DNA of 64,000 bases from Bacteroidota bacterium (GTDB lineage: Bacteria > Bacteroidota > Bacteroidia > AKYH767-A > 2013-40CM-41-45), in NCBI GenBank assembly GCA_016720655.1, contig JADKKE010000032.1, forward strand, positions 182,383 through 246,382, written 5' to 3'. This document shows, one piece after another, positions 26,628 through 53,172 of the stretch. The notes beneath the pieces are model-generated. The model worked only from the letters and a program-made list of their open reading frames with translations, was not told the DNA's origin and ran no database searches. The position numbers were made by a program, and so were the translations under genes. Within the stretch, counting starts at the first letter, position 1. Every line of letters starts with the position of its first letter.

Positions 26628-29600
26628 TTATTCTCGAATTAAAGTCAATCTTCCGGTTTCGATTGCATCACCACAAATAATTTTGAAGAGATATACACCA
26701 TCTGCATTTTCTTTTGCGTCCCATTTCACCAGATAAGTTTTGTCTTTTTCCATGGTTCCATCAAACAAGACTGCAACTTTCCTTCCATCCAGAGAGTAGA
26801 TTTCAATTCTGCCATTCTCAGAATCAAAATTATTTCGGAATTCAATTGTTGTGGTACTACTGAGTGGATTCGGGTAAGCAGTGACTACAAGTGCAGGCAA
26901 TGTTACTTTGTAAGTCTCACGAATGATTGTCCCTTCAGCATCTGTGATTTCAACTTCATATACACCTGGTGATGTTACATCAACCTCAGACGAAGTTTGT
27001 GAAGGGTCATTATTCCAAACGAAGGAATATGGAGCAATTCCTCCATCCACTTCTGCTGTGAGTGTCCGATCCTTTGGATTCAGTATCATCCTGCAATTTG
27101 ATCTGCATCTTGTTACTTGAACACAAGAAGTACTTGATCCGCATCCATTCGTGACTGTAACTGAATAGGAACCAGAGCAATTGACACTAATGCATCTATT
27201 GTGTGAACCATTACTCCATGTATATGAATAATTCGTACCGAGAGGAGCACACAGGGTGGTGGACTGACCAGAATTGTAACAGCGATTACCGGTGATAGTA
27301 CTTGAAGGACGTGAACCAGCTGCGATACAAATTGAAGAAGTGCTGCTGCATCCGCTACTGTTGGTTACAGTAACCGAGTAAGTTCCCGGACCATTGATAT
27401 TCAGGCAACGATTATGTGTTCCATTATTCCAGGTATAGGAATAACCTGTCCCACCGGCAACACATAAGGTTGAGCTTTGACCTGCACAAAGTGAAGCGGG
27501 CCCGGTAATGGTGCTGTTCGGTCTTGGATTGACAATAATCACTTTACTGCAAGTGCTTGAACAACCCGCTGAATTTGTCACGGTAACAGAATACGTTCCT
27601 CCGGTATTCACAGTAAGACAACGACCATGTGTACCATTGTTCCAGGTATAAGAGTAACCTGATCCGGCAGGAGCACACAAAGTAGCTGATTGTCCCTGGC
27701 AAATGGAATTGTTACTTCCGCATCCCGTTACAGATATGTTGCAAGATGGTCCAGCGCTTACATAAATTGTTTTGCTACATGTACTGCTACATCCACCAGC
27801 ATTCGTTACTGTAACACTGTATGTGCCGGCGGAAGTCACGGAAATACATTGTGTGCGCAATCCATTGCTCCACAGATAAGAATAGCCTTGTCCTGATGGT
27901 GCACACAACTGAACCGTTTGTCCCTGACAAATAGTGTTGTTGCTGCCACAACCGGTGGTGGTGATGTTGCAGGAAGGAATGGAACTTACATAAATGGTTT
28001 TGGTACATGTACTGCTGCAGCCACTGCTATTCGTTACTGTCAGCGTGTATGTTCCTGCTGCAGTAACACTGATGCACTGACTGTGCAGTCCGTTGCTCCA
28101 TGAATATGAATATCCATTTCCTGAAGGTCCGCACAACTGTACTGATCTGCCTTGACAAATAGTATTGTTGCTGCCACATCCCGTTGCTGTAATTGTGCAT
28201 GAAGGTGCCTGGCCAACTGAAATTGTTTTACTGCAAGTACTGCTACATCCGGTACCATTTGAAACTGTTACAGTGTAAGTTCCGGCCGTTGTTACGTTAA
28301 TGCATTGAGTATGCAATCCATTGCTCCAGTTATAAGTGTAACCGGAACCGGCAGGTGCACATAACTGAGCAGTTTGTCCCTGACAAATTGAATTATTATT
28401 CCCACAACCAGTAGCAGAAATTGTACAGGAAGGTACTGTCTTGCTACTAACTATTACATCAACCAAACTATCGCAATGCAGTGCAGTTGAATAGTTGTGT
28501 GAATAGGTTCCACCGGATGTGACCACTTGTCCCCATGGAAGAGTATAAGATCCACCCTGACAGAAAGAAGCAGTGCTTGATGTATGATAAGCAGCATTCA
28601 CGGTTATATTAATTGTAACGAGGCTATCACATCCTGCTTGCGAAGAATACGTGTGAGGATACGGGCCTGCACTTGTTGCTGTTCCGCCCCAAGGTAAAGA
28701 GTACGAACCACCCTGACAGATCGCATGTGATTCGGAAGTCGAATACGTTTGGTTTACGGTGATATTAATCGTTACCAAACTATCACATCCTGCCTGCGAA
28801 GAATATGTGTGTGGATACGGACCTGCACTTGTTGCTGTTCCGCCCCATGGCAATGGATACGAACCACCGTCACAAATCGCATGCGTTTCAGAAGTAGAAT
28901 ACGTTTGATTTACGGTGATATTAATCGTTACCAAACTATCACATCCTGCCTGCGAAGAATATGTGTGTGGATACGGACCTGCACTTGTTGCTGTTCCGCC
29001 CCAAGGTAAAGAGTACGAACCACCCTGACAGATCGCATGTGATTCGGAAGTCGAATACGTTTGGTTTACGGTGATATTAATCGTTACCAAACTATCACAT
29101 CCTGCCTGCGAAGAATACGTGTGAGGATACGGACCTGCACTTGTTGCTGTTCCTCCCCATGGCAATGGATACGAACCACCGTCACAAATCGCATGAGTTT
29201 CAGAAGTTCCACCGTCACAGATCGCATGTGTTTCTTAAGTTGAATATGTTTCCTTCACATCGTTATTGATCGCTTCCACACTATCACATCCTGCCTGTGT
29301 ACAGTTCGTGTGAGGATATGGACCGGCACTTGTTGCTGTTCCACCCCAAGGCAATGGATACGATCCACCGTCACAAATCGCATGTGTTTCAGAAGTAGAA
29401 TACGTTTGATTTACGGTGATATTAATCGTTACCAAACTATCACATCCTGCCTGCGAAGAATACGTGTGAGGATATGGACCTGCACTTGTTGCTGTTCCAC
29501 CCCAAGGCAATGGATACGATCCACCGTCACAAATTGCATGCGTTTCAGAAGTTGAATATGTTTGATTTACATCAATATTGATTGTTACCAAACTATCACA

Positions 29601-32600
29601 TCCTGCCTGCGAAGAATATGTGTGAGGATATGGACCTGCACTTGTTGCTGTTCCACCCCAAGGCAATGGATACGAACCACCGTCACAGATCGCATGCGTT
29701 TCTGAAGTTGAATATGTTTGATTTACATCAATATTGATTGTTACCAAACTATCACATCCTGCCTGCGAAGAATATGTGTGTGGATACGGACCTGCACTTG
29801 TTGCTGTTCCGCCCCAAGGCAATGGATACGATCCACCGTCACAAATCGCATGCGTTTCAGAAGTTGAATACGTTTGATTTACATCAATATTGATTGTTAC
29901 CAAACTATCACATCCTGCCTGCGAAGAATACGTGTGGGATATGGACCTGCACTTGTTGCTGTTCCACCCCATGGCAATAGATACGAACCACCCTGACAGA
30001 TCGCATGCGTTTCTGAAGTTGAATACGTTTGATTTACGGTGATATTAATCGTTACCAAACTATCACATCCTGCCTGCGAAGAATACTGTGAGGATATGGA
30101 CCGGCACTTGTTGCTGTTCCACCCCATGGCAATGGATACGAACCACCGTCACAGATCGCATGCGTTTCTGAAGTTGAATATGTTTGATTTACGGTGATAT
30201 TAATCGTTACCAAACTATCACATCCTGCCTGCGAAGAATACGTGTGAGGATACGGACCTGCACTTGTTGCTGTTCCGCCCCAAGGCAATGGATACGATCC
30301 ACCCTGACAGATCGCATGCGTTTCTGAAGTTGAATACGTTTGATTTACGGTGATATTAATCGTTACAAGACTATCACATCCTGCCTGCGAAGAATATGTG
30401 TGAGGATATGGACCGGCACTAGTTGCTGTTCCACCCCAAGGCAATGGATACGAACCACCGTCACAGATCGCATGCGTTTCTGAAGTTGAATATGTTTGAT
30501 TTATGGTGATATTAATCGTTACCAAACTATCACATCCTGCCTGCGAAGAATAAGTGTGAGGATATGGACCTGCACTAGTTGCTGTTCCTCCCCAAGGCAA
30601 TGGATACGATCCACCCTGACAGATCGCATCGTTTCTGAAGTTGAACACGTTGATTTACGGTGATATTAATCGTTAAGACTATCATCCTGCCTCGAATAAT
30701 GGCGGATGGACCGGCACTAGTTGCTGGTCCACCCAAGGCAATGGATACGAACCACCGTCACAGATCGCATGCGTTTCTGAAGTTGAATATGTTTGATTTA
30801 TGGTGATATTAATCGTTACCAAACTATCACATCCTGCCTGCGAAGAATACGTGTGAGGATACGGACCTGCACTTGTTGCTGTTCCTCCCCATGGCAATGG
30901 ATACGATCCACCGTCACAAATCGCATGTGTTTCAAGTAGAATACGTTTGATTTACGGTGATATTGATTGTTACCAAACTATCACATCCTGCCTACGAAGG
31001 ATACGTATGAGGGTATGGACCTGCACTGTGTGCTGTTCCACCCTAAGGCAATGGATACGATCCACCGTCACAAATCGCATGTGTTTCAGAAGTTGAATAT
31101 GTTTGATTTACATCAATATTGATTGTTACCAAACTATCACATCCTGCCTGCGAAGAATATGTGTGAGGATACGGACCGGCACTAGTTGCTGTTCCTCCCC
31201 ATGGCAATGGATACGATCCACCGTCACAAATCGCATGTGTTTCAGAAGTTGAATACGTTTGATTCACTACTAGTTCAGTTGTAATCGTACTGTCACAACC
31301 AGCTTGATTCGGAATATGAGTGACATACGTACCTGCTGTTGTCTGTGCTGTGCCCCCTGGTGGAGTATAACTTTGTCCAAGACAAATTGGAACAGTTGTA
31401 TTGCTGCTGCTGTTCGCGGTTGATAAAGTCACATAAGCGGTATCTCTTCCGATACAACCATTGAGAGGATTCGTTACTGTGAGAACATAGGTTCCGACAG
31501 CATTAACAGTTGGAGTCGCTGAATTTGGATTCAGGGAAATATTTCCATCTGTTGTCGTCCATGCAAATTGTGCATTTGCTGTGGTCGATGAACCATCCAG
31601 AGTTGTACTTCCGGCTACACAAAGGAATTGTTTATCCTGACCTGCATTTGCATTCACAACAGGTGGTTCAGAGATTGTAAAAATATTGCTCGCGGTACAA
31701 TTCCCGTTGTCTGTAACAGTCACTGTATAGGTTCCTGGTGCGAGACCCGATAGAGTTTGAGTATGATCTCCCGTATTCCAGTCATATGTGAATGGAGCAA
31801 CGCCATCTGAATGTGCAGTGATGGATCCATCGTGAGCGCCATTACAGGTAACATTGTTTACATCGGCGGTAACTGTTACAATTCTCACTGTAACCACCTG
31901 GTCAGCGGCACCGGCAAGAATACAGGCATCGCCACCAATGATCCGTCGGAAGAAAGTTTTTACATACAACTGGCCGATTGTGGCACCGGGAAGGTCTTGA
32001 GCATTGGCACCACTGATCGGATCCCAGTTTATACTGTCAGTACTAATCTGCCATTGATAGGTTGTAGCCGAAGGCAATGCAGGATAGGGAGAAGTAACAC
32101 CATGTCGAATAATCGTCGGCAGGACATACGCTGGAATGGAACCCGGTAAATCATCTGGGATAGTTCCCGCACAAATCGTCTGGTTACCCGTAATAGTATT
32201 TCCGAGCAGGTCAGGAGGATTTGCCCAAACAACTAAACCCGGTTCATATGGAGTAGTACTCACGCGAGTCGTATTGAGTGCACCTTGTGTAAGTGGAATG
32301 TTATTCGATTTGGAAGTAACAATTGTATAAATCCTGCAATTGTAAAATTTAATTCCTCTTTCTCCAACAGGATCATAATCATCACCGGCTCCACCATAAT
32401 ACGTACTGAACAAGAGTTCTGATAAGTCTGATTTTAATTTACAAAATATCTTATCATTGTTTCCAAGATTTGTTGTTTGCAATGGAACATTCGGGCTTGT
32501 TGTTACGGGAAAGTTGGTACTGTTGGTATATCCAAAAATATACACATCATTGTTCAAATCAGTATTCAATCCCATCATGTTCACTTCGTTTGCACTTCCT

Positions 32601-39042: not shown

Positions 39043-40233
39043 ATGCGCAAAGTGAACCTTTTTATTTTCATTGCATTTTGCCTGACTTCTTGTCTTCAGA
39101 ACACATCGGAAAAAGTAAATACCAAAGCAAGCGCAGTAGAATCAGATGAAATGGTTCTAGCGCCGGGCAAATCCGCTATGCGTTTGCTGACAGATCGTCC
39201 TCCAAATCTGGAAACTCCTTTGCATTACTTTTTAATGGACTATACTCCCAATGATGTTTTCTTCGTGCGCTGGCACATGTCAAATCTTCCTCCTGAAATT
39301 GGAACAGATACATTTCGATTACGGGTCGGAGGACATGTAAAAAATAATGTGGAACTATCGTTAAATGATTTGAAAACGAAATTTACGCCGATCTCAATAA
39401 CTGCTCTTGCGCAATGTGCCGGCAATTCAAGGAGTTTTAATGACCCCCATGTACCGGGTGGACAATGGAAAAACGGTGCGATGGGGAATGCGAAGTGGAC
39501 AGGAGTAAGATTGTCGGACGTACTGAAAATGGCCGGAATTAAAAATGGTGCTGTTGACGTTTCGTTCAATGGCATTGATGATCCGCCATTACCCGGAACT
39601 CCTGATTTTGTAAAATCACTTCGTCTCGAAAAAGCAATGGACGGAGAAACCATGATTGCATATGAAATGAATGGCGAGCCATTGCCATTGCTCAATGGTT
39701 TTCCGTTGAAACTTGTAGTACCGGGTTGGTATGCGACTTACTGGATTGGAATGTTAAATGATATTACTGTCCATGCGGATACATTTGCCGGCTTTTGGAT
39801 GAAAAAGGCATACCTCGTTCCCCAAAATAACCGTGACGGAAATGAAAATCCGGATAGCCTTTCACAGAGCATGGAGCCGATAAACAAAATGAACGTTCGG
39901 AGTATTTTCGTCACTCCTGAGCCGGATAGTTTGATTCAGACCGGAAGTATTTGTGAAATACAAGGACTTGCTTTTGATGGTGGTGATGGGATTCAAAAAG
40001 TTGAATTGTCTGAAGATAATGGGAAGACATGGAAAGAAGTTAATCTTGATGCTGTGCTTGGAAAATATTCCTGGAGAAGATGGCGCTATTCCTGGAAAGC
40101 CAATACGGCAGGAACATATATTTTCAAAATAAAAGCAACAAACACTCTTGGAGAAACACAACCCGAGCATCATTGGAACAGAAGTGGATACATGCGAAAT
40201 GAGATTGAAGTATTAAAGCTGGAGGTAAAGTAA
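39043..40233 (+). CDS. Sulfite-oxidase-family molybdopterin oxidoreductase (SorA-like sulfite dehydrogenase catalytic subunit) with lipoprotein-type signal
   Basis: ALAQCAGNSRSFNDPHVPGGQWKNGAMGNAKWTGVRLSDVL contains the Mo-ligand Cys motif of the SO family. There is a C-terminal Ig-like dimerisation domain. Confidence 0.65.
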   Translation: MRKVNLFIFIAFCLTSCLQNTSEKVNTKASAVESDEMVLAPGKSAMRLLTDRPPNLETPLHYFLMDYTPNDVFFVRWHMSNLPPEIGTDTFRLRVGGHVKNNVELSLNDLKTKFTPISITALAQCAGNSRSFNDPHVPGGQWKNGAMGNAKWTGVRLSDVLKMAGIKNGAVDVSFNGIDDPPLPGTPDFVKSLRLEKAMDGETMIAYEMNGEPLPLLNGFPLKLVVPGWYATYWIGMLNDITVHADTFAGFWMKKAYLVPQNNRDGNENPDSLSQSMEPINKMNVRSIFVTPEPDSLIQTGSICEIQGLAFDGGDGIQKVELSEDNGKTWKEVNLDAVLGKYSWRRWRYSWKANTAGTYIFKIKATNTLGETQPEHHWNRSGYMRNEIEVLKLEVK

Positions 40234-40581
40234 ATGAGTATGAAATATGTCTTATTTATTTTTATTTTCTGGATGATGCAATCGATCTTTTGTTCTTGTT
40301 CAGAACCAACAACAAAAGTTGAGACTACTGACGGACATGATGCTGTGCTTTCTTTGAGTGATGCCGGTTATCATTTGCCCGATCGTCCGGGTTATGATTT
40401 GTTTTTATCCAATTGCGGTGTTTGTCATTCCTACAGATATATCCAGATGCAACCCAATTTCTCACGTAAGACATGGGAGAAAACCGTGGATAAGATGATT
40501 CATACTTTCGCTGCCCCAATACCGGATTCTTCCGTAATTCCTATTGTAGATTACCTCATGGCAGTTCGCGGAAAGAAATAA
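40234..40581 (+). CDS. Monoheme cytochrome c (SorB-like electron-acceptor subunit)
   Basis: Signal peptide and a single CGVCH motif in 115 aa. The start codon abuts the sorA-like stop. Confidence 0.55.
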   Translation: MSMKYVLFIFIFWMMQSIFCSCSEPTTKVETTDGHDAVLSLSDAGYHLPDRPGYDLFLSNCGVCHSYRYIQMQPNFSRKTWEKTVDKMIHTFAAPIPDSSVIPIVDYLMAVRGKK

Positions 40582-40827: not shown

Positions 40828-42182
40828 ATGTCTAAAAATACCACTCCTTCCGGACTGAAACGTGAACTATCCCTTGTCCAGGCAACGGCGATTAACATGA
40901 TTGATATGGTTGGAATTGGTCCCTTCATCGTATTGCCCTTGGTGATAAAAATGATAGGAGGGCCTCATTTTATTTTTGCCTGGATTGTTGGTGCAGTGAT
41001 TTCCCTGGTGGATGGAATGGTTTGGGCAGAACTTGGGAGCAGCTTATCCGAAAGCCGGAGGGAGTTATAATTTTTTGAAGGAAGCGTATGGGAGAAAAGG
41101 AGGGAAGGTGCTTTCGTTTTTTATACGTGTGGCAGACACTAATCCAGGCTCCATTAGTTGCAGCAAGCGGAGCGATTGGTTTCGCACAGTACTGCACCTA
41201 TTTGTACCCCTTCACACCTGTTCAGCAAAAAATGGTTTCAGGGAGTATCATCATTTTATTGGTGTTCTTTCTTTACAGGAAAATTGAAACCATTGGAAAA
41301 ATCAGTGTAATGTTATGGGTTGCAGTTCTTGTGACCATTAGTTGGATGATCTTCGGAGGAATCACCTCTCATACGATTTCGAACAATTGGATTCCGGATA
41401 ATCATTCTGATTTGTTCGGCAGTTTGTTTTTCTTTGCGCTCGGACAAGCATCTGTAAAAACTATTTACAGTTATCTTGGGTATTATAATGTTTGCCATCT
41501 TGGCGGAGAGATCCGCAATCCAGGAAAAAATATTCCACGAAGTATTTTCATTTCTGTTTTCGGTATCGCTTTCCTTTATCTCGCCATGAATATCAGTGTT
41601 GTGAGCGTGATTCCATGGCAGGAAGCACAGAATTCTACTTTTATCGTGAGCACCTTCATTGAACGAATTTATGGCCATCAAGCTGCAGTAATAGCTACCG
41701 GTTTGGTACTTATTGTTGCGTTTTCCTCCTTGTTTGCTGTGTTGCTCGGTTATTCCCGCATTCCGTATGCAGCAGCAGTGGATGGACAATTTTTTCCTGC
41801 ATTTGCGAAACTTCACCCAACAAAGAATTTCCCTCATATTTCATTGCTCTTCCTCGGAGGTGCCGCATTTATCTTCAGTCTGCTTTTTAAGTTAAGCGAT
41901 GTAATTAGTGCGATATTGGCCATGAGAATTCTTGTTCAATTTATCGGACAAGCAATTGGTGTTATATTACTGCGAAAGAGAAACGGAACGGCACATCTTC
42001 CGTATAAGATGTTCTTATATCCACTCCCTGTTATCCTTGCGATTTTAATCTGGATTTTTATTTTCGTCTCAACTGGGTGGAAATTCGTACTTTCAGGGCT
42101 TACTGTGATGTCAATAGGGGTAATCGTTTACTTGCTAATGCCTCCTTTTAAGCCGGAAAGCCGGGCTGGTGAGGTAAGATAG
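40828..42182 (+). pseudogene. APC-family amino-acid permease disrupted by two frameshifts
   Basis: Three consecutive ORFs encode one permease: ...MVWAELG / AAYPKAGGSYNFLKEAYGRKGGKVLSF / LYVWQTLIQAPLVAASG.... The first shift is near 41035-41038 (an extra a in ggga). The second is an extra T in the T6 run at 41117-41122. Confidence 0.7.
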
Positions 42183-44005: not shown

Positions 44006-45016
44006 TCAGATCCTGATGCCTGCAACGAGCACATCGTCTACCTGTTCGTAACGTCCGCGCCAGGATTCAAAATATTCATCCAGTGTTTTTTCTTGTTCTT
44101 TCATTGGAAGCTGATGAATTGATAAAAGGAGTTCTTTGAACTTCTTCGTCATGATCTTCTTCCCCTGTACACCCCCAAACTGATCAGCATATCCATCAGA
44201 ATAGACATAGATAATATCATTGTCCTCGATTTGTAATGTTTGTTGAGTAAACACCCTGTCTTCATCCGGACGAAACCCCCCGATCGGCAGTTTGTCAGGC
44301 TTTAAAGCATCGGCAACATTATTACGTATGTAGTACAGCGGCCTGTTGGCTCCTGCAAACGTTAGCATTTTTGTATTTAGATCAATGTAACAGAGTGTGA
44401 TGTCCATTCCGTCGTGTGAATCACTTTCTTTTTGTTTGAGTGCTTCTACAATTCCATCATTCAGCAATTCAAGAATTTTTGCAGGTTCTACCAAATGTTT
44501 TTGTCCTATAATTTGATGCAACAATGAACTCCCCACCATACTCATGAATGCTCCGGCAACGCCATGTCCGGTGCAATCAGCAATAGCCAGGATGACAGTA
44601 TTATCGATCTTGTCAAAAAAATAGAAATCTCCACTTACAATATCTTTTGGCTTGTATAAGATAAAAGCATCTTTGAAACTTTGAAGAATCGTTTCGGTTT
44701 TTGGAAGAATGGCAGTCTGAATATTTCTCGCATAATGCAAACTGTCAATAATCTCAACATTTTGCTGTGAAACAGTGAGATTTCTTCTCTCCAGTTCCCA
44801 CTTCTGGATCATCACCTGATGCGCTCGTTCGCTAAGTTTATCTGTGAGGTTTTTGTTCTCTTCTCTGAATCTTTTGTTAGCCCAACGGAAATAGAAAACT
44901 CCGCCGATTAAAATAAAGATATTGGAAAAAATCAGGAACCAGGTCAGGTCATCGCTGAAGATCTGTGCATCCGGTCCTTTGGGTACAGAAGTGTAAAGCT
45001 GAAGAAGTATGTGCAC
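44006..45016 (-). CDS. PP2C-family (SpoIIE/RsbU-type) serine phosphatase with N-terminal membrane anchor, a SiaA-like partner
   Basis: DVSGDFYFFDKIDNTVILAIADCTGHGVAGAFMS...VYSDGYADQFGG metal-binding motifs. TM helix FLIFSNIFILIGGVFYF near the N-terminus. Confidence 0.8.
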   Translation of the reverse strand: MHILLQLYTSVPKGPDAQIFSDDLTWFLIFSNIFILIGGVFYFRWANKRFREENKNLTDKLSERAHQVMIQKWELERRNLTVSQQNVEIIDSLHYARNIQTAILPKTETILQSFKDAFILYKPKDIVSGDFYFFDKIDNTVILAIADCTGHGVAGAFMSMVGSSLLHQIIGQKHLVEPAKILELLNDGIVEALKQKESDSHDGMDITLCYIDLNTKMLTFAGANRPLYYIRNNVADALKPDKLPIGGFRPDEDRVFTQQTLQIEDNDIIYVYSDGYADQFGGVQGKKIMTKKFKELLLSIHQLPMKEQEKTLDEYFESWRGRYEQVDDVLVAGIRI

Positions 45017-45139
45017 CTGAATAATAAATATTTTAGATTTGAATCATCGAACGAATCACGGAGCTGCAAAATAGTCAAGAGATTCAATATATGATACTGA
45101 TGAGAAGAAATCTTATTGGATTTGAAAAGAAGCCAATTC

Positions 45140-45200
45140 GGTGTGAGTTTGAGTGTGGGTATGGGTTTGAGTGTGAGTTTGAGTGTGAGTGTGTGGAGAG
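45140..45200. repeat. GT-rich simple repeat (gtgtgagtttgagtgtg-type) in a divergent intergenic region
   Basis: ggtgtgagtttgagtgtgggtatgggtttgagtgtgagtttgagtgtgagtgtgtggagag. Confidence 0.8.
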
Positions 45201-45422
45201 TCAGACAATTAGTTAGATACCTCTTTTAATTGCCAGTTCACAGCAGGTAAAAGCTACCCTGAAGTATTGATTTCTATGCCACCCCGTACCAACAACTAAG
45301 CACTAACAAAAACTTCGAAAGTACCCACATCCCATAGTCCTTTGAATTCACCTCCTTATAAAAAATCCATGACCCTCTTGCGAATCCTGCTTCAATCCTC
45401 TACATTTGGTTTTTGACCGTTT

Positions 45423-45977
45423 ATGGCCGATCTGAATATTTATGAACTCTTTCGGAAGATGGAGGAGGACGATATTATATTGTCTTTCAAGGGTGATATC
45501 ACCCAGGATCTGCTTGCATCTGTTTATCAGATCATGGAAGCCCGACTTGAGAGCGAAAAAGAAGAGCCTAAGCGGAAGAAAAAATTCTATCATATTTTGG
45601 TAGAATGCCTTCAGAATGTATACCACCACATGGTTGATCTGAAAGAAGAACACGGACCCGATGCGATGGAGAGTACAGCTATTTTCATGATTGGCTATGG
45701 ACCTGAAAACAGTTATCGAATCGTTACAGGGAATTTCATTTCAGTGGAATATGTGGACGGATTGAAAACAAAGCTCGAACGCATCAATAAATTATCGCCG
45801 GAAGAATTGCGTGAAGAATACCTTCAGCAATTGAGCACAACTGAACTTTCTGAAAAAGGTGGCGCTGGTCTGGGTCTAATCGACATGGCCAGGAAATCCG
45901 GACAGAAATTGGAATACAGCTTTTATCCTGTTTCTGCTTCACACTCTTTCTTCAGCCTCGGTGTTACTGTTCATTAA
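45423..45977 (+). CDS. SiaB-like small GHKL-fold protein kinase (anti-sigma-factor-kinase-like)
   Basis: 184 aa with a GGAGLGLIDMARKSG ATP-lid (G2-box-like) motif. It lies next to the DUF1987 and PP2C genes. Confidence 0.45.
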   Translation: MADLNIYELFRKMEEDDIILSFKGDITQDLLASVYQIMEARLESEKEEPKRKKKFYHILVECLQNVYHHMVDLKEEHGPDAMESTAIFMIGYGPENSYRIVTGNFISVEYVDGLKTKLERINKLSPEELREEYLQQLSTTELSEKGGAGLGLIDMARKSGQKLEYSFYPVSASHSFFSLGVTVH

Positions 45978-45997
45978 AATAAAAAATTATTTACAAC

Positions 45998-46375
45998 ATG
46001 GATCCCCTCATTATCGAAGAAAGTATTAAGACACCTTCCATTACATTTAATCCAAATACCGGTGTATTGGAGATAAAAGGAAAGTCTATCCCGGAAAACT
46101 CTCTTGAATTTTATAAGCCAATTTTTGAATGGCTGGAAGTGTATTCCAAAACTCCTGCGGCGAACACCGAAGTTCATGTTCGCCTGGATTACTTCAATAC
46201 GAGTTCATCCAAATGTCTGCTCGATATTTTTCGTCGCCTCGAACCTGCAAATAGCGGAGGAGCAAGTTCGGTGAAAGTGCATTGGTTTTACGAAAGTGAT
46301 GACGAAGACATGATGGAAGCCGGAGATGATTATCAGGCGCTCGTAAAGCTTCCTTTTACGTTGATAAAAGTGTAA
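45998..46375 (+). CDS. DUF1987-family (SiaC-like) small regulatory phosphoprotein
   Basis: 125 aa. The size, the acidic C-terminus and the position immediately after the SiaB-like kinase match the SiaC/DUF1987 arrangement. Confidence 0.45.
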   Translation: MDPLIIEESIKTPSITFNPNTGVLEIKGKSIPENSLEFYKPIFEWLEVYSKTPAANTEVHVRLDYFNTSSSKCLLDIFRRLEPANSGGASSVKVHWFYESDDEDMMEAGDDYQALVKLPFTLIKV

Positions 46376-46572
46376 AAGGATTTATTGCATTCCTGCGCAT
46401 ATTCCTTCTTTCGAACTTTTCCTCATTTCTATTTCACATTGGTTTTTGGACTAGTACATAGTCTCTTTGCATACAATTCTGTGAGTTCCTTGTAAAACCT
46501 TTGTGTGCTCTGTGTTATCAGATTGTTTTTAATAAGTTTTTCGAAAATTGAAATAATCATTTCTTTGAAAAA

Positions 46573-49500
46573 CTATTTCCTGCTGAACCTCTTCCCAACC
46601 GACAACACTTTTCTGAACCAGTCAAAGCTCAAGGCGAAATAAAGAAACAAAGTCATCGACCAGATAACCATGAGGTTGACCCAATAGGTATCACACGCTT
46701 TGCCAAAAACATTTTTTACAGGAGAGAAAAACTGGCTACGTAGAATTTTCTTGTTCGGCTCGAGAATGAAAACAGGTTCGTATCGTTGTATGACATGGTT
46801 GTTGTAAACAGCAACACGCTCTGTTGAACGACTGTTTCTCACCACTTCATCAAGCTCTTCATTCCTGTAGTTCTTTTTTAACAACTGGTAAGCCTGATTT
46901 TTTTCTTCCGTATTTGTCATCACGCCTACCAATTCCTCTTTTCGTTCATTGACTTCATTGAATTCATCGATCAGCTGATCATGAAGAGTATTCAAAAATG
47001 TTCGGGTTTCGCGAATGAGGTCAGGTGTAATTGATTCTCCATTTAATTTTTGCAAAGAAGGAAACCTTCTGGCCGGATGACTTTCGCCGTATTCAGTCAG
47101 TTCGTTTTTTACCAGTCGAATGCCGGCATCCAGTTCGTCTTTACTTTTTCCTGCAGTGAGTAAGCGTTCTGTTTTGTCCACACTTTTACGCAATTCCGAA
47201 ATCCAGTAATCTTTCCGGATTGTAGCCTGACTCATCGCTGCTTCCAGCTCGAAGAAATTCTTCTCAAACTCATTGTTTCGGAACTGATTCACAGCAAGTG
47301 CTTCAAAGGCCCAACGCGAAGCCATTATGTCACCAACGATGGGTACTTCTTTTTGCGTAGTGATCACCGGGTTTAATTTCTCAAAACGAACAATCACACC
47401 ACTCAATAGAATTTGCGGAATAATCAAAAATGGAATCAGGATGTAAATTGTAACGACAGAATCCAGAGCTGAAGAAATATTTAAGCCCAATAAATTTGCA
47501 AAACAAGAAGTTGTAAACAGGACAAGAAAATAGTCTCCCCACATTCCATGAATTCCAAGAATCAGATTTCCAATGATGAGAAAAGAAATCGATTGAATGG
47601 CAGAAAGAATAAACAACAAGGTTATTTTGGAAAATAAATAACTCTGCTTAGAAAGATTTAGGAATTTTTCACGCTGCAGGATTTTCCGGTCACGAATAAT
47701 TTCTTCAGCGCTTACTGACAGTCCAAGAAAAAGTGAAATGATCACACCGATGAAGAGATAAGCAGGTATATTCGGATTGTCGGCAAAAAAGTAATCTGAC
47801 TCCGGACGAGTGTATCGAAGAATAAAACCAAGAATAATTGCCAGAAGCGGTGCTTCGAGCAAATTGATCATCAGGTATTGTGTATTGCTCAGCTTGGAGA
47901 GAAAATCTCGCGTAAAGAATATTCCCAGCTGTTGAAATTTACTTGCTTTTTTGTTTGTTTGCGCCGGAAGAGCAGGGACTTCTTCTGTAAACGAACTTGT
48001 ATTTCCTTTTTCCTTGTACAGTTCATTCCATTCGCCCGGTGTTACTTTTCTGTTTCTTGTCTGATTTCCAAATTCATCAAGTTCCTTTAACTCCACAATA
48101 TTGAAGAGTTGTTCAGGATTGATATTTCCACACGTCGGACATTCACCTTCTTCTGCATCTGCAAGATTTGCCTGACGTTTGAAATAAATGAGTGAGTCTG
48201 ATGGATTACCAAAAAAGATAGGAAATCCACCCAGGTCCAGGAGTAACAATTTGTCGAACATTCTGAAGATGTCCGAACTGGGTTGATGGATTACCACAAA
48301 GACCAGTTTTCCGGTAAGTGCAAGTTGCTTGAGCAAATCCATCACATTCTCGGCATCCCGTGAAGACAATCCGGATGTAGGTTCATCCACAAAAAGAATT
48401 CCCGGTTCGCGCACCAGTTCCAGTGCAATATTCAATCGCTTCCGTTGTCCTCCACTGATTGTTTTGTTCAGTGGATTCCCAACTTTCAGGTCTTTAATTT
48501 CTGCCAGTCCGAGAGACTCCAGAGTGGTCATTACTTTCTGACTAATCTCAGGGTCTGATAAATCTCCGTAGACAAGTTTTGTGTTGTAAAAGAGATTCTG
48601 ATAAACACTCAGTTCTTCTATCAATAAATCATCCTGCGGAATATTTCCAATCACTCCTTCCAAATGCTCAGGATCAATATATACATCGGATCCATTGATC
48701 ATCAATGCTCCGCCGGACGGTCTTGCTGTACCATTCAATACGCTAAGCAGCGTAGATTTTCCGGCACCGCTTCCACCCATAACCCCAACGAGCTGTCCGG
48801 ATTGTGCCGTGAAATTCAAAGAGTGCAATCCTTTTTGTCCGCTCTTGAATGTATATTCAAGGTCCTTTGCCTGCATAACAAGCCGACTTTCTTCCTTGGT
48901 TTCGAGAAATGGACGGAGAACATCACTGTAATAGAGCGGTTGAATTTTTTGTCCGCGCAAAACAGCTCCTTGTGTAAAGGCAGAAACACGTTGAGTATCT
49001 ACCGGCTGACCATTGACAGTGAGCGCATCTTTTCCGGAATAGCGGAGAATAAAAATACCGGCACGTCGCAAATGTAGGAACCACAATGAACCATCAAGAT
49101 CGTGGTGATGCAATTGCAGGCAATGATGAACATCCTTGTTTTTTTCATGTTGAACCAGTAATATCTGATGTGCATCCAATTTATTCATGGAAGGCATCGG
49201 CTCAGTGATGGCCATACAATAGGCATGATCATCAGGTTCTATAGTAAAGACAGTCGCTACCGTTTCGAGAAACTCGCGTTCCGGTTCGGTAATTTGTTCG
49301 GGTGAACTATAGATAAATTCAGCGAGACGGATGAAGACAATGTATTTCTGACGGGTATTGAGCTCCTTGTTTATTTCCGTGCAAATCCGAAGGGCTTTCA
49401 CAGAACTCACTGCCAGCTTCTTCTTTACCTTGGTAGGATCAGCGACGCCTTCGAGCAGGTGCAATTGCTCATCAAACAGGGTGAGGTATTCCGGGATTCT

Positions 49501-49623
49501 TTGCAGACTGATCTGTTGCCTTAAAAAAGATTCAACGACAGAACGACTTTGTTGTGTCAATCTTTCCAGGCTGGCTCCAATTGCAAAAAGTTGCATCAGT
49601 GCGCGGAGTATTCGTTCGGACAT
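46573..49623 (-). CDS. Multidomain ABC transporter (1016 aa): N-terminal TerB-like domain, FHA-like domain, ABC ATPase, and ABC-2/ABCG-type six-TM permease
   Basis: Walker A GVMGGSGAGKSTLLSVLNG, signature LSGGQRKRLNIALELV, Walker B ILFVDEPTSGLS, then a hydrophobic permease with a long C-terminal cytoplasmic tail. N-terminus …LRRAGIFILRYSGKDALTVNGQPVD resembles an FHA domain. Confidence 0.75.
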   Translation of the reverse strand: MSERILRALMQLFAIGASLERLTQQSRSVVESFLRQQISLQRIPEYLTLFDEQLHLLEGVADPTKVKKKLAVSSVKALRICTEINKELNTRQKYIVFIRLAEFIYSSPEQITEPEREFLETVATVFTIEPDDHAYCMAITEPMPSMNKLDAHQILLVQHEKNKDVHHCLQLHHHDLDGSLWFLHLRRAGIFILRYSGKDALTVNGQPVDTQRVSAFTQGAVLRGQKIQPLYYSDVLRPFLETKEESRLVMQAKDLEYTFKSGQKGLHSLNFTAQSGQLVGVMGGSGAGKSTLLSVLNGTARPSGGALMINGSDVYIDPEHLEGVIGNIPQDDLLIEELSVYQNLFYNTKLVYGDLSDPEISQKVMTTLESLGLAEIKDLKVGNPLNKTISGGQRKRLNIALELVREPGILFVDEPTSGLSSRDAENVMDLLKQLALTGKLVFVVIHQPSSDIFRMFDKLLLLDLGGFPIFFGNPSDSLIYFKRQANLADAEEGECPTCGNINPEQLFNIVELKELDEFGNQTRNRKVTPGEWNELYKEKGNTSSFTEEVPALPAQTNKKASKFQQLGIFFTRDFLSKLSNTQYLMINLLEAPLLAIILGFILRYTRPESDYFFADNPNIPAYLFIGVIISLFLGLSVSAEEIIRDRKILQREKFLNLSKQSYLFSKITLLFILSAIQSISFLIIGNLILGIHGMWGDYFLVLFTTSCFANLLGLNISSALDSVVTIYILIPFLIIPQILLSGVIVRFEKLNPVITTQKEVPIVGDIMASRWAFEALAVNQFRNNEFEKNFFELEAAMSQATIRKDYWISELRKSVDKTERLLTAGKSKDELDAGIRLVKNELTEYGESHPARRFPSLQKLNGESITPDLIRETRTFLNTLHDQLIDEFNEVNERKEELVGVMTNTEEKNQAYQLLKKNYRNEELDEVVRNSRSTERVAVYNNHVIQRYEPVFILEPNKKILRSQFFSPVKNVFGKACDTYWVNLMVIWSMTLFLYFALSFDWFRKVLSVGKRFSRK

Positions 49624-49741
49624 AAAATGATAAAAATGAAATAAGTTTCAACTGGATAGATCGGAAGCGGCCTGGCAAATCCTTCCGGATCGTTGGTCAA
49701 TTCTTCAGCGTTGAAAGTAAAAATAATAATTAAGAAGACAT

Positions 49742-49777
49742 AAAAAAACCATGAACGAGCAGTTCATGGTTTTTTAT
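49742..49777 (-). terminator. Rho-independent terminator after the lipoprotein gene (perfect 9-bp stem, T-run)
   Basis: aaaaaaaccatgaacgagcagttcatggtttttt: accatgaac and gttcatggt are perfect inverted repeats flanked by A and T runs. Confidence 0.55.
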
Positions 49778-49794
49778 AATGGTTAAATTTTCTC

Positions 49795-50655
49795 TTACTG
49801 AATCATTTCAGCTCGTACCTTGGCAACGGCAGTGGAAAGTCCGGCCATCGTTGCTTTGTTCAAATCGGCAGGAGATTTCACGGCATCAAAAGATTTTTTC
49901 AATTCTATCAATTGAGTTTGCAGTGTTTTCGAGCTTTGGTATTTTTTCAATTCATCAAACAAACTGATCAGGTTTTCGAGATACAGTTTCTGATTATAAA
50001 TTTTTTCAAAGATGGCAGCATTCGCTTTAGTCGGATTCTCGTTTTTCATCAGTTCAATACTTAGGAACTGAACTTCCATAATGCTTCCTGCAAGCACGTG
50101 TGCAGCTACTTCAAGACGGTGGTTGCTTCGCAAATAGGAATCTGTTTCAGCATATGCGCGATCGATCATGGAAACCAGAGAATCTTTGTTATCCGCATTT
50201 TCACGAAAGCGTTGTGTAAATGTGTCAAAGGTTTCCTGCACATTCAATTTCTCAGACAGTTTTCGAGTAGTTGAGTAATATTCGAGCAAGTCCTGATTTT
50301 GTCCATAAAAGGCTGCATAGGCCATGTCAATTCCGTAAATTCCATAATTGACAGCTTTCTTATAGGCAGTATTGTATTTTTCTTCATTGCTCGGTGAATT
50401 CAGCATTTCCTTATTAAAAGGAACCTCATTCTGATAGATCGCATTGATCATTTCCATTGGAGAAGGTAAATTCGCAATGGTGTAAAAGAATTTGAAATCC
50501 AGAATTTCTTTCGCCTTTTTCGTCGCGGAATCTTCCACCAATACAGTTGAATCAGGCATCTGGTTGCTTTCCGATTCAGCCTGTTTATTATCACTGCTGC
50601 AGGAAGAAAAGAATAACAAGCCTGTGAGGGCAATCGGGAAGAGTACCTTTTTCAT
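49795..50655 (-). CDS. Hypothetical lipoprotein
   Basis: Lipobox MKKVLFPIALTGLLFFSSCSS, then a mainly helical acidic protein with no recognisable catalytic motif. The ORF extends to 50700, but the likely start is the Met at 50655. Confidence 0.4.
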   Translation of the reverse strand: MKKVLFPIALTGLLFFSSCSSDNKQAESESNQMPDSTVLVEDSATKKAKEILDFKFFYTIANLPSPMEMINAIYQNEVPFNKEMLNSPSNEEKYNTAYKKAVNYGIYGIDMAYAAFYGQNQDLLEYYSTTRKLSEKLNVQETFDTFTQRFRENADNKDSLVSMIDRAYAETDSYLRSNHRLEVAAHVLAGSIMEVQFLSIELMKNENPTKANAAIFEKIYNQKLYLENLISLFDELKKYQSSKTLQTQLIELKKSFDAVKSPADLNKATMAGLSTAVAKVRAEMIQ

Positions 50656-51546: not shown

Positions 51547-53172
51547 GTGAATAAATTCAAACTCTGGCTTCCTCTTATTTTTGCAGCACTTTTGGCTGCC
51601 GGGATTTATGTTGGAATGCGACTCAATGAACCATTCAAAAACAATCGTTCATTTTTTTCTTTTCGTACCGGGCAATTCAACAAGCTCAACGACGTCATCA
51701 ATTACATCAACAATGAATATGTAGATACCGTGAATCAGAAAAAACTGGTGGAATCTACTATTGAAGATATGCTCCATCAACTGGATCCCCATTCGGCATA
51801 CATACCTTCCGATGAGCTTCAGGCTATGAACGAACCACTGGAAGGGAATTTTGATGGTATTGGTGTCGAATTTCATATTCAGGAAGATACAATCATGGTT
51901 GTTTCTGCTGTAACTGGAGGTCCATCGGAGCTCTTGGGTATTCAGGCGGGCGACCGGATTATCAAAGTAGACGATAAAAATGTAGCACATATTAATATCT
52001 CCAGTTCCCAGGTAATGCAGGCTTTACGCGGGCCCAGCGGAACCAAGGTGAAAGTCACAATATTCCGCAAAACGAATGGTCAGACGAGAGATTACCAGAT
52101 TGTTCGCGGTAAAATTCCGATTTACAGCGTTGATGTTGCATACATGCTTAATAAAGAGACCGGTTATATTAAAGTAAGTCATTTCGCAGAGAGGACCTAC
52201 GAAGAATACCTCGATGGTTTTATGAAGCTGAAAGAAAAGGGAATGAAAAATCTTGTTCTCGATCTGCGCGGAAACCCGGGTGGATATTTGAAAACAGCAA
52301 TTCAGATTGCTGATGAATTTCTTCCGGATAAAAAACTTGTTGTTTATACCCAGGGAAGGTCTCGTTCAAAGGAATCATTCTATGCCAGTGAAAGAGGCTT
52401 CTTTGAAACCGGAGCACTTGTTGTAATGGTGGATGAAGGCAGTGCTTCCGCAAGCGAAATTGTAGCGGGTGCACTCCAGGATTGGGATCGTGCAACAGTT
52501 GTTGGTCGAAGATCTTTCGGTAAAGGTTTGGTGCAGGAACAAAGTGAATTTCCCGATGGTTCAGCAATTCGCCTGACCATCGCCAGGTATTATACACCAA
52601 CCGGGCGTTGCATCCAGAAATCGTACGAAGGTGGGTATGAGAATTACGAAAATGAATTGTATGAACGATTGAAAAAAGGCGAGTTGTTGTCGTCCGACAG
52701 TATTCATTTTGCTGATTCACTAAAATTCAAAACTCCGGGAGGAAAAATTGTATACGGCGGCGGAGGAATTATGCCGGATGAATTCGTTGCGATGGATACT
52801 ACAGGGAGTTCTGTGTATTATGGAGATGTAAACAGCAGAGGACTAATCAATCAGTTTGCATACAACTACCTCGATAAAAACAGATCGGCATTCGAGAAAT
52901 TCAAAACCTTTGATGAATTCAACAGTCAGTTTACTACCAATGATCAGATCTTCGATCAGTTTTTGTCTTTTGCCGGAAAGAATGGTGTGCCCTTGGATGA
53001 TAAAGGAGCAAACATTTCCGGTGCAATTATTCGTGTTCAAATCAAAGCACTGATCGCAAGACAGATCTGGAAAAATGATGGATTCTATCCTGTGGTACAC
53101 ACACTTGATGTTGCATTGCGAAAAGCTTTGAACATGGTTGAGATGAAGCAGGTAGCCGTGAAAGGGAATTGA
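51547..53172 (+). CDS. Carboxyl-terminal processing protease (S41 family, Ctp)
   Basis: N-terminal anchor, PDZ (LGIQAGDRIIKVD), catalytic LVLDLRGNPGGYL Ser and downstream Lys (…RRSFGKGLVQE). Confidence 0.85.
   Translation: MNKFKLWLPLIFAALLAAGIYVGMRLNEPFKNNRSFFSFRTGQFNKLNDVINYINNEYVDTVNQKKLVESTIEDMLHQLDPHSAYIPSDELQAMNEPLEGNFDGIGVEFHIQEDTIMVVSAVTGGPSELLGIQAGDRIIKVDDKNVAHINISSSQVMQALRGPSGTKVKVTIFRKTNGQTRDYQIVRGKIPIYSVDVAYMLNKETGYIKVSHFAERTYEEYLDGFMKLKEKGMKNLVLDLRGNPGGYLKTAIQIADEFLPDKKLVVYTQGRSRSKESFYASERGFFETGALVVMVDEGSASASEIVAGALQDWDRATVVGRRSFGKGLVQEQSEFPDGSAIRLTIARYYTPTGRCIQKSYEGGYENYENELYERLKKGELLSSDSIHFADSLKFKTPGGKIVYGGGGIMPDEFVAMDTTGSSVYYGDVNSRGLINQFAYNYLDKNRSAFEKFKTFDEFNSQFTTNDQIFDQFLSFAGKNGVPLDDKGANISGAIIRVQIKALIARQIWKNDGFYPVVHTLDVALRKALNMVEMKQVAVKGN

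Follow-up and report, generated by a model that had tools for sequence, protein, structure and literature searches.

A SiaABC-type switch beside a conserved ABC exporter, its candidate output, in a Bacteroidota genome

The window analysed here is a stretch of 64,000 nucleotides from a Bacteroidota bacterium (GenBank assembly GCA_016720655.1, contig JADKKE010000032.1, positions 182,383 to 246,382). It contains genes for a membrane-anchored PP2C phosphatase, a small kinase and a DUF1987 protein, which resemble SiaA, SiaB and SiaC of Pseudomonas aeruginosa. A convergent gene for a fused ATP-binding cassette (ABC) exporter follows. The three open reading frames (ORFs) of the switch lie where an earlier reading of the sequence alone had put them, with the phosphatase on the minus strand and the other two genes on the plus strand. 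The genes and their principal features, in window coordinates, are as follows.

44006..45016, minus strand: short membrane-anchored PP2C phosphatase ("mini-SiaA"), 336 amino acids (aa), GTG start (Pfam SpoIIE, NCBIfam SiaA and 6K4E matches)
44885..44947, minus strand: sole predicted transmembrane (TM) helix of the phosphatase, about aa 24-44 (peak in a Kyte-Doolittle window)
45423..45977, plus strand: SiaB-family protein kinase, 184 aa (Pfam DUF6272, NF038262, 6KKO_A)
45998..46375, plus strand: SiaC-family (DUF1987) phosphoprotein, 125 aa, 20 nt past the siaB-like stop (Pfam SiaC, 6KKO_C, 6K4F)
46199..46201, plus strand: Thr68 codon, predicted phospho-acceptor in Y65-F-N-T68-S-S (alignment to P. 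aeruginosa SiaC T68)
46573..49623, minus strand: fused ABC exporter, 1016 aa, nucleotide-binding domain (NBD) followed by ABC-2 membrane domain, convergent with the siaC-like gene (ABC_tran aa 266-417, ABC2_membrane aa 564-781)
49204..49617, minus strand: predicted TerB-like helical bundle, exporter aa 3-140 (AlphaFold model)
48952..49164, minus strand: predicted FHA-like beta-sandwich, exporter aa 154-224, without the canonical phosphothreonine (pThr)-binding residues (AlphaFold model)
46624..46680, minus strand: predicted extra C-terminal TM helix, exporter aa 982-1000 (hydropathy calculation)
49795..50655, minus strand: L301, an all-helical lipoprotein 5' of the exporter and its conserved operon partner (neighbourhood and predicted structure)

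The phosphatase matches Pfam SpoIIE (E=2.3e-21). Its closest solved relative is the PP2C domain of SiaA (6K4E, E=4.8e-31), and the RssB-type phosphatases are next (~1e-6). The match to the NCBIfam SiaA model NF038263 covers positions 382-656 of 658 and scores 189.6 bits, where the equivalog cutoff is 700. The earlier description of this protein as SiaA-like is correct for the catalytic half. It does not extend to the N-terminal sensor half, which is absent, as the protein aligns to the C-terminal half of SiaA alone. The PP2C metal-binding motifs D130 (SGDFY), D147-C-x-G-H-G152, D274-G275 and D327-D328 are invariant in 19 of 19 homologs. About 23 residues precede the TM helix, and the two TM helices and N-terminal sensing architecture of SiaA are not matched. 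The N-terminal flank of the helix is acidic (1 K/R and 3 D/E) and the C-terminal flank is basic (5 K/R). By the positive-inside rule, the protein is predicted to be N-out/C-in, with a cytoplasmic catalytic domain.

In other Bacteroidota loci (L029, L043, L027, L035, L040, L113 and others; for example L043:5114-8425), a co-directional operon runs from a sensor-PP2C gene through a lipoprotein gene to siaB and siaC. The sensor-PP2C is approximately 1100 aa long and consists of a Reg_prop beta-propeller, Y_Y_Y, a TM segment and a SiaA-like PP2C domain. The lipoprotein is approximately 270 aa long and has no Pfam match. Comparison of the phosphatases suggests that the same switch takes its input from a large periplasmic sensor in those loci and, in the window, from a minimal phosphatase with one TM helix.

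The kinase matches Pfam DUF6272 (E=1e-39). It passes the NCBIfam subfamily model SiaB_fam_kinase (NF038262), with 157.5 bits against a cutoff of 85, and falls below the SiaB equivalog cutoff (NF038264, 91.6 against 225). Its alignment with SiaB of the 6KKO complex extends over the full length (6KKO_A, E=1.3e-13; family profile E=1e-26). In this alignment, the sole basis on which the kinase motifs were assessed, there are two family-invariant motifs that are also present in P. aeruginosa SiaB, the N-box-like E61-x2-Q64-N65-x2-H68-H69 and the G-box-like K145-G-G-x-G-L-G151. The Pfam scan gives no HATPase_c match for the kinase. When the family profile is compared with the PDB, the best GHKL match is the G-box region of VanS, which is not significant (E=1.3). 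The sequence-only reading had called the kinase GHKL-like. The ATP-binding-type motifs to which this label points are present and invariant, and the label stands for motif resemblance without a domain match.

The siaC-like gene follows closely, as it does elsewhere (median siaB-siaC gap 19 nt, 71 loci). Its product matches Pfam SiaC PF09345 (formerly DUF1987; E=7.7e-42, 142 bits against a cutoff of 24.5) and the solved SiaC structures 6KKO_C and 6K4F (E=9e-16). It is below the equivalog cutoff (NF038265, 94.6 against 150). Many Bacteroidia metagenome-assembled genomes (MAGs) carry homologs that are 65-99% identical. The P. aeruginosa phospho-acceptor lies in LLYLNTSSIK (PMC7647112). Thr68 of the window protein (YFNTSS) aligns with this T68 and is invariant in the same number of homologs as the metal ligands (19 of 19). 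The SpoIIE/6K4E, NF038262 and PF09345 matches, with intact catalytic motifs and phospho-acceptor threonine, bear out the sequence-only assignment of the three genes to a SiaA/SiaB/SiaC-like triad. A kinase devoid of ATP-binding residues or a 125-aa product that did not match DUF1987 would have overturned that reading, and neither is the case. By homology, a kinase/PP2C/Thr68 switch is well supported. As all three proteins score below their equivalog cutoffs, they are family members and not orthologues of the Pseudomonas proteins. Given these scores, the architecture of the phosphatase and the missing SiaD, the locus should not be filed as SiaABCD.

In the SiaC-SiaD crystal structure, the helical stalk of the cyclase is bound by SiaC alpha2, alpha3 and residues N67, T68 and S69, and D79, R103, E110 and D114 form hydrogen bonds to the stalk (PMC8457831). 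The window protein retains Y65, N67, T68 and S69. Two of the contact positions are charge-reversed (P. aeruginosa D79 to Arg79 and R103 to Asp104), and both reversals are invariant in the Bacteroidota family. The other two are Asp111 in place of E110 and Leu115 in place of D114. The docking surface is strongly constrained yet unlike that of Pseudomonas, which fits a different conserved partner. Between SiaC proteins with and without an adjacent ABC gene, a single position is group-specific, and 50 positions reach at least 90% identity in each group. The two groups are indistinguishable, and the partner of the family appears to be the same one in loci that encode it next door and in loci that do not.

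Within the exporter, the N-terminal region was modelled with AlphaFold from 46 sequences, and the model is confident (pLDDT 89.5, pTM 0.85). In this model, aa 154-224 fit the FHA beta-sandwich fold. Many homologs of the N-terminal region have a match to TerB (PF05099). The extra TM helix closes a C-terminal extension of approximately 230 aa, which has no Pfam match. A search with the N-terminal module returned short proteins only (135-415 aa), mostly on contigs of a few kb. Very long contigs carry some of these proteins (P0121, of 269 aa, lies on one of 1.08 Mb; further cases include P0122). Occasionally, the TerB/FHA-like module may be encoded by a gene of its own, or the gene call may be split.

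Between L301 and the ABC gene, most lineages encode a secreted protein of approximately 142 aa (cluster c16, no Pfam match), giving an L301-c16-ABC operon (for example in L022, L028, L045, L050, L060, L085 and most of L086-L165). The clade of the window does not contain c16. Its operon is L301-ABC, with a 171-bp gap at 49624-49794.

As the sequence-only reading had stated, no GGDEF gene follows the siaC-like gene, and the next gene is the convergent ABC transporter. No GGDEF, EAL or HD-GYP motif is present in window ORFs longer than 150 aa. The loci anchored on 80 related SiaB/SiaC pairs were also scanned, and no GGDEF motif is present in their 870 ORFs (1.28 Mb). Cyclic di-GMP signalling genes are sparse in Bacteroidota, which counts against a cyclase encoded elsewhere. 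Four points are read from homology: what the three switch proteins are, that their catalytic and acceptor residues are intact, how the exporter is built from domains, and that a cyclase is lacking.

Conservation of the gene neighbourhood

Two sets of loci were compared. The genome set contains 80 Bacteroidota loci with a SiaC alignment (SiaC identity 53-92%) from Flavobacteriales, Bacteroidales, Chitinophagales and other groups, in which ORFs were called and clustered. The metagenome set contains 80 contig loci anchored on the N-terminal domain of the exporter. Together, the approximately 160 related loci represent a highly conserved Bacteroidota branch of the SiaC family, with about 54-99% SiaC identity across orders and no cyclase. 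The forward test uses the 67 loci with at least 3.3 kb of sequence 3' of SiaC. SiaC lineages are clusters at 75% identity (n=24), and a neighbour is counted as kept when it is within four genes of SiaC.

In 33 of the 67 loci, a member of the ABC family is directly 3' of SiaC and convergent with it, and in 36 it is within four genes. The SiaB-SiaC-ABC block occurs in 16 distinct two-sided flank contexts and is present in 9 of the 10 loci from the clade to which the window belongs. The genes 5' of SiaB vary by lineage and include a short PP2C, an RlmL-type methylase, a PNPOx-like protein, S-adenosylmethionine (SAM) methyltransferases, an S41 peptidase and a lipoprotein. The genes past the ABC gene vary among lineages as well. 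Neighbours are kept in the following numbers of SiaC lineages.

SiaB: 19 of 24
ABC exporter: 13 of 24
L301: 13 of 24
Adjacent short phosphatase: 8 of 24
S41 peptidase: 8 of 24
RlmL: 6 of 24

Apart from SiaB itself, no neighbour of SiaB/SiaC is kept in more lineages than the exporter. Its count is approximately twice that of the best housekeeping neighbour (6-8 lineages) and no lower than that of the adjacent short phosphatase, by homology a bona fide partner in the switch. The sequence-only reading had set the transporter aside and left the switch with no candidate target. The two sets of loci do not support this, and the exporter also has a regulatory-looking N-terminal module, TerB-like and FHA-like.

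In the reverse test, SiaC and SiaB are directly convergent with the exporter in approximately 13 of 47 evaluable exporter loci and are nearby in 3 more. Among exporter loci of at least 12 kb, SiaC is present in 12 of 31. The median stop-to-stop gap between convergent SiaC and exporter genes is 88 nt. Adjacency is lost in L003/L168, where the triad and the L301-ABC operon are approximately 28 kb apart on one contig (383 kb in L003). In L104, PriA and RlmL alone separate the switch genes from the exporter.

The S41 (CtpB-like) C-terminal processing peptidase, at 51547-53172 in the window, recurs within 10 kb of SiaB/SiaC on either side (L013, L019, L039, L053, L058, L168 and others). It was considered as a further partner and rejected. 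Only 2 of the 80 exporter-anchored loci carry S41, so its recurrence probably reflects lineage synteny and not function.

In six Bacteroidales loci (L019, L042, L053, L058, L062 and L080), a STAS protein of approximately 115 aa (Pfam STAS, E=3e-16) is encoded three to four genes past the ABC gene, often beside a protein of approximately 118 aa that is Hpt-like by eye. These loci would have a second, classical antagonist-type protein close to the exporter.

Candidate outputs of the switch

The reading tentatively favoured here, at near to an even prospect, is a SiaABC-type threonine switch whose output is the convergent ABC exporter and not a diguanylate cyclase. The conserved gene neighbourhood suggests the coupling of SiaC to the exporter. 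The output step is suggested by that conservation together with the regulatory look of the exporter N-terminus. There are two precedents. Rv1747 is an FHA-bearing ABC exporter under the control of Ser/Thr phosphorylation (PMC3138270), and those who solved the SiaC-SiaD structure have suggested that the widespread DUF1987 proteins act as modulators of proteins adjacent to them (PMC8457831).

We infer both the signal and the direction in which it would travel. The SiaB-family kinase would phosphorylate the SiaC-like protein at Thr68. The mini-SiaA PP2C, which has one TM helix, a linker helix and a catalytic domain and no periplasmic sensor, would dephosphorylate it upon a membrane or envelope cue. 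Such a cue is reasonably proposed for mini-SiaA because the N-terminal membrane region of P. aeruginosa SiaA is required to sense membrane perturbation (PMC12834913). The phosphorylation state of SiaC would then set whether it docks on its partner, which would be the 1016-aa exporter, contacted through the N-terminal TerB-like and FHA-like module. Such docking would adjust the export carried out by the L301-ABC system. Unphosphorylated SiaC would be the likelier binder, by analogy with SiaC-SiaD and because the FHA-like domain is without the residues that read pThr. The broader proposition, that Bacteroidota SiaC proteins directly gate a dedicated ABC exporter by docking on its TerB-like and degenerate-FHA N-terminal module in a manner dependent on Thr68 phosphorylation, is one possibility, and it is put forward with some reserve.

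The P. aeruginosa Sia system is reported to respond to tellurite, sodium dodecyl sulfate (SDS) and cold (PMC12834913). The window exporter begins with a TerB-like ("tellurite resistance") bundle, which may be a coincidence.

Several observations weigh against the exporter as output. Residues 1-250 of the exporter have no Pfam match, and TerB is not matched by the window's own sequence. At the sequence level, FHA is detected neither by Pfam at E<=10 nor by the family profile when it is run against PDB chains. The canonical pThr residues (Gly-Arg, Ser-x-x-His and Asn) are not found in the FHA-like domain, where motifs were mapped by eye. Conserved instead, among 104 homologs, are G197, N204-G-Q206, G219, R223 and Y231-x-S233-D234. 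With neither the canonical residues nor a sequence-level match, the domain is FHA-like in fold only. EssC-type domains have likewise been described as FHA-like in fold only. A canonical FHA reader of phospho-SiaC was considered and is not supported, as the fold fits and the binding residues and sequence signal are absent. The predicted structure of L301 resembles generic bundles only and gives no clue to function. Adjacency is partial, at approximately half of the forward loci and a third of the reverse loci. Among loci with the large sensor phosphatase (gene order c18> c6> B> C>), only 2 of 15 have an adjacent ABC gene. The exporter and siaC-like genes are convergent and are therefore not co-transcribed. 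RlmL and S41 recur in 6-8 of 24 lineages, so part of the neighbourhood signal may be slow genome rearrangement.

The last of these points also fit a second explanation, which is possible and in our view somewhat doubtful. In this explanation, the SiaABC-type switch works on an unlinked target (a transcription factor, an enzyme, or a sigma factor that the SiaB-like kinase would sequester), and the ABC gene is a neighbour through slow rearrangement. It is favoured by the lack of a shared transcript, by the roughly half of loci in which the ABC gene is not adjacent, and by the recurrence of dCMP deaminase in the same range as RlmL and S41, with RlmL appearing again in the rearranged L104. The identical SiaC surface with or without an adjacent ABC gene would fit any conserved target. 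Against it, the ABC gene and L301 both exceed the housekeeping neighbours about twofold in lineages kept and at least equal the adjacent short phosphatase, and the flanks of the B-C-ABC block vary on both sides in its 16 contexts. The loci without an ABC gene show no other recurrent SiaB/SiaC neighbour, be it a sigma factor, STAS, GGDEF or an enzyme. The switch and exporter modules also remain close after rearrangement (L003/L168 and L104).

The exporter could instead be the input. Through its TerB/FHA-like module, it would inform the kinase or phosphatase of transport activity or substrate load, and SiaC would act on another downstream target. This reading is unlikely. Flux sensing occurs in Bce-type pairs of transporter and kinase. 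The window phosphatase, with one TM helix and no sensor domain, needs an outside input, the neighbourhood evidence supports a functional link without a direction, and the cytoplasmic N-terminal module resembles a protein-interaction module and not a catalytic one. However, elsewhere in Bacteroidota the large Reg_prop/Y_Y_Y sensor phosphatase brings its own input to SiaB/SiaC, and in Bacteroidales the B-C-ABC block occurs without any adjacent phosphatase. SiaC is also output-proximal and binds the effector in the sole characterised system (PMC8457831).

A classical Sia system, in which SiaC activates a diguanylate cyclase encoded beyond the 64-kb window, is very improbable: the only experimentally known SiaC target is SiaD (PMC7278518, PMC8457831) and the window is only part of the genome, but no GGDEF motif is present in the window or around the 80 related pairs, of the four SiaC positions with hydrogen bonds to the SiaD stalk, two are charge-reversed and a third is Leu, and the proteins are under the NCBIfam equivalog cutoffs.

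The triad alone is ordinary. What offers a specific lead that can be tested is its conserved pairing with an exporter of unusual architecture. If the exporter is the output, it would be the first non-cyclase output for the SiaABC family and would extend partner-switch signalling to the direct control of membrane transport, in a phylum where such signalling is little studied. Post-translational control of ABC transporters by a partner switch would then be widespread, and a role would be assigned to the unannotated N-terminal module of many Bacteroidota ABC transporters. Should the coupling fail to be confirmed, what is left is an orphan SiaABC-like module of an ordinary kind.

Intergenic elements and chromosomal setting

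Four features lie in the divergent spacer and the convergent gap.

45017..45422, no strand: divergent spacer of 406 bp that separates the phosphatase and siaB-like genes (ORF coordinates)
45141..45193, plus strand: GT-rich simple repeat, GTGTGA x 8.8 or an 18-mer x 2.8, period 6/18 (Tandem Repeats Finder, TRF)
45401..45408, plus strand: TACATTTG, match to the Bacteroidetes -7 consensus TAnnTTTG, 14 nt 5' of the siaB-like ATG (motif match)
46351..46380, plus strand: hairpin over the siaC-like stop, followed by TTTATT, a possible terminator in the convergent gap (12 pairs, 3 G-C)

The sequence-only reading had drawn attention to the divergent region and its GT-rich repeat. Both are present, and the repeat is found once in the window. 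The spacer has no Rfam match at E<=1. In L006, where SiaC is 92% identical, only the final ~50 nt of the spacer before the siaB-like ATG are conserved, and unrelated sequence takes the place of the repeat. The repeat is thus not a conserved element. It is identical in the strain-level relatives L166 and L167. A role as a regulatory or phase-variable element was rejected, since the repeat is invariant in L166/L167 and absent in L006 and the region has no Rfam match. In L166/L167 (SiaC 99% identical), the sole difference in the spacer is an A-tract at 45310-45314, with five A against seven. This variable tract is approximately 110 nt 5' of the siaB-like start, and the GT-rich repeat is constant.

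TACATTTG falls within the block conserved in L006, and such a motif occurs approximately 1.1 times per kb across the window. From the published consensus, it is a candidate siaB-like promoter. The hairpin is weakly supported, with 1 site found and 1.5 expected from shuffles.

The locus is part of a Bacteroidota chromosome, with a G+C content of approximately 40% along the entire window. Its nearest relatives are Bacteroidia and Flavobacteriales MAGs, some from wastewater. By Pfam annotation, no sigma factor, STAS or GGDEF gene is present within approximately 18 kb on either side. The genes in this range encode proteins sorted by the type IX secretion system (T9SS), a pyruvate kinase, a molybdoenzyme and cytochrome c, an amino-acid permease, a dCMP deaminase, the S41 peptidase, a superoxide dismutase, glycosyltransferases and a histidine kinase. 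An anti-phage defence system was considered and rejected, as PADLOC shows generic ABC ATPase matches only.

The APC-family amino-acid permease gene (40828-42182) appears to be split in three frames (40828-41070, 41012-41287 and 41088-42182). Its longest piece begins at position 74 of the Pfam AA_permease_2 profile, and the split reflects either a frameshifted pseudogene or an assembly error. At 39043-40581, a sulfite-oxidase-type molybdoenzyme (Oxidored_molyb and Mo-co_dimer) is directly followed by a 115-aa CxxCH haem protein, by appearance a SorAB-like periplasmic pair. Three adjoining minus-strand ORFs at 26628-30648 (845, 245 and 198 aa) have short, scattered Pfam matches (Glyco_hyd_101C and DUF3612 fragments), as is usual in repetitive or low-complexity sequence. 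PKD and a T9SS sorting domain are present in the largest. These ORFs probably encode repetitive secreted or surface proteins.

Comparison with known systems

SiaABC is known solely as the regulator of one diguanylate cyclase in Pseudomonas, and no second SiaC/DUF1987 target beside SiaD is described in the literature searched. Nor does that literature describe DUF6272, Bacteroidetes partner switches in which the phosphatase is of the SpoIIE type, TerB/FHA ABC transporters, or the Reg_prop/Y_Y_Y sensor-PP2C > lipoprotein > SiaB > SiaC operons.

The locus shares with P. aeruginosa SiaABCD (PA0172-PA0169) a PP2C, a SiaB-family kinase and a DUF1987 phosphoprotein with the YxNTSS motif and Thr68. 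In both, the gene for the phosphoprotein lies beside that for the kinase and on the same strand, the phosphatase is anchored in the membrane, and the phosphorylation state of the small protein would decide the outcome by partner-switch logic. Unlike SiaABCD, the window contains no SiaD cyclase, and the conserved neighbour is an ABC exporter. The phosphatase is 336 aa long against approximately 660, has one TM helix and no periplasmic/HAMP region, and is divergently transcribed. All three proteins score at sub-equivalog level, and the SiaD-contact surface of SiaC is changed (D79 to R and R103 to D).

The sensor-PP2C operons of other Bacteroidota contain SiaB and SiaC proteins that are indistinguishable from those of the window, and the PP2C catalytic domain is related. 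They differ in the approximately 1100-aa phosphatase with its large periplasmic beta-propeller, in their co-directional arrangement, in an extra lipoprotein gene and in the rarity of an adjacent ABC gene (2 of 15).

The HsbR/HsbA/HsbD switch of P. aeruginosa, BgrSTUWV of Sinorhizobium meliloti, RsbU/V/W and SpoIIE/AA/AB also combine a PP2C, a small kinase and a phosphorylatable antagonist, and the phosphorylation state of the antagonist likewise picks its binding partner. Unlike in these switches, the antagonist of the window is DUF1987 (Pfam SiaC) and not Pfam STAS, the kinase is of the DUF6272/SiaB type with no significant HATPase_c match, and there is no sigma factor or cyclase nearby.

Rv1747/PknF of Mycobacterium tuberculosis resembles the exporter side of the locus. 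Both have a fused NBD-membrane-domain exporter of the ABC-2/ABCG type with an N-terminal cytoplasmic module of FHA fold, and in both the exporter gene adjoins a Ser/Thr phospho-signalling system. Rv1747 has two canonical pThr-binding FHA domains and is phosphorylated directly by a Hanks-type kinase from the same operon. In contrast, the window exporter has one FHA-like domain without the pThr residues, preceded by a TerB-like bundle, its genes are convergent with those of the switch, and the kinase is of the SiaB type and, by analogy, would act on a separate small protein.

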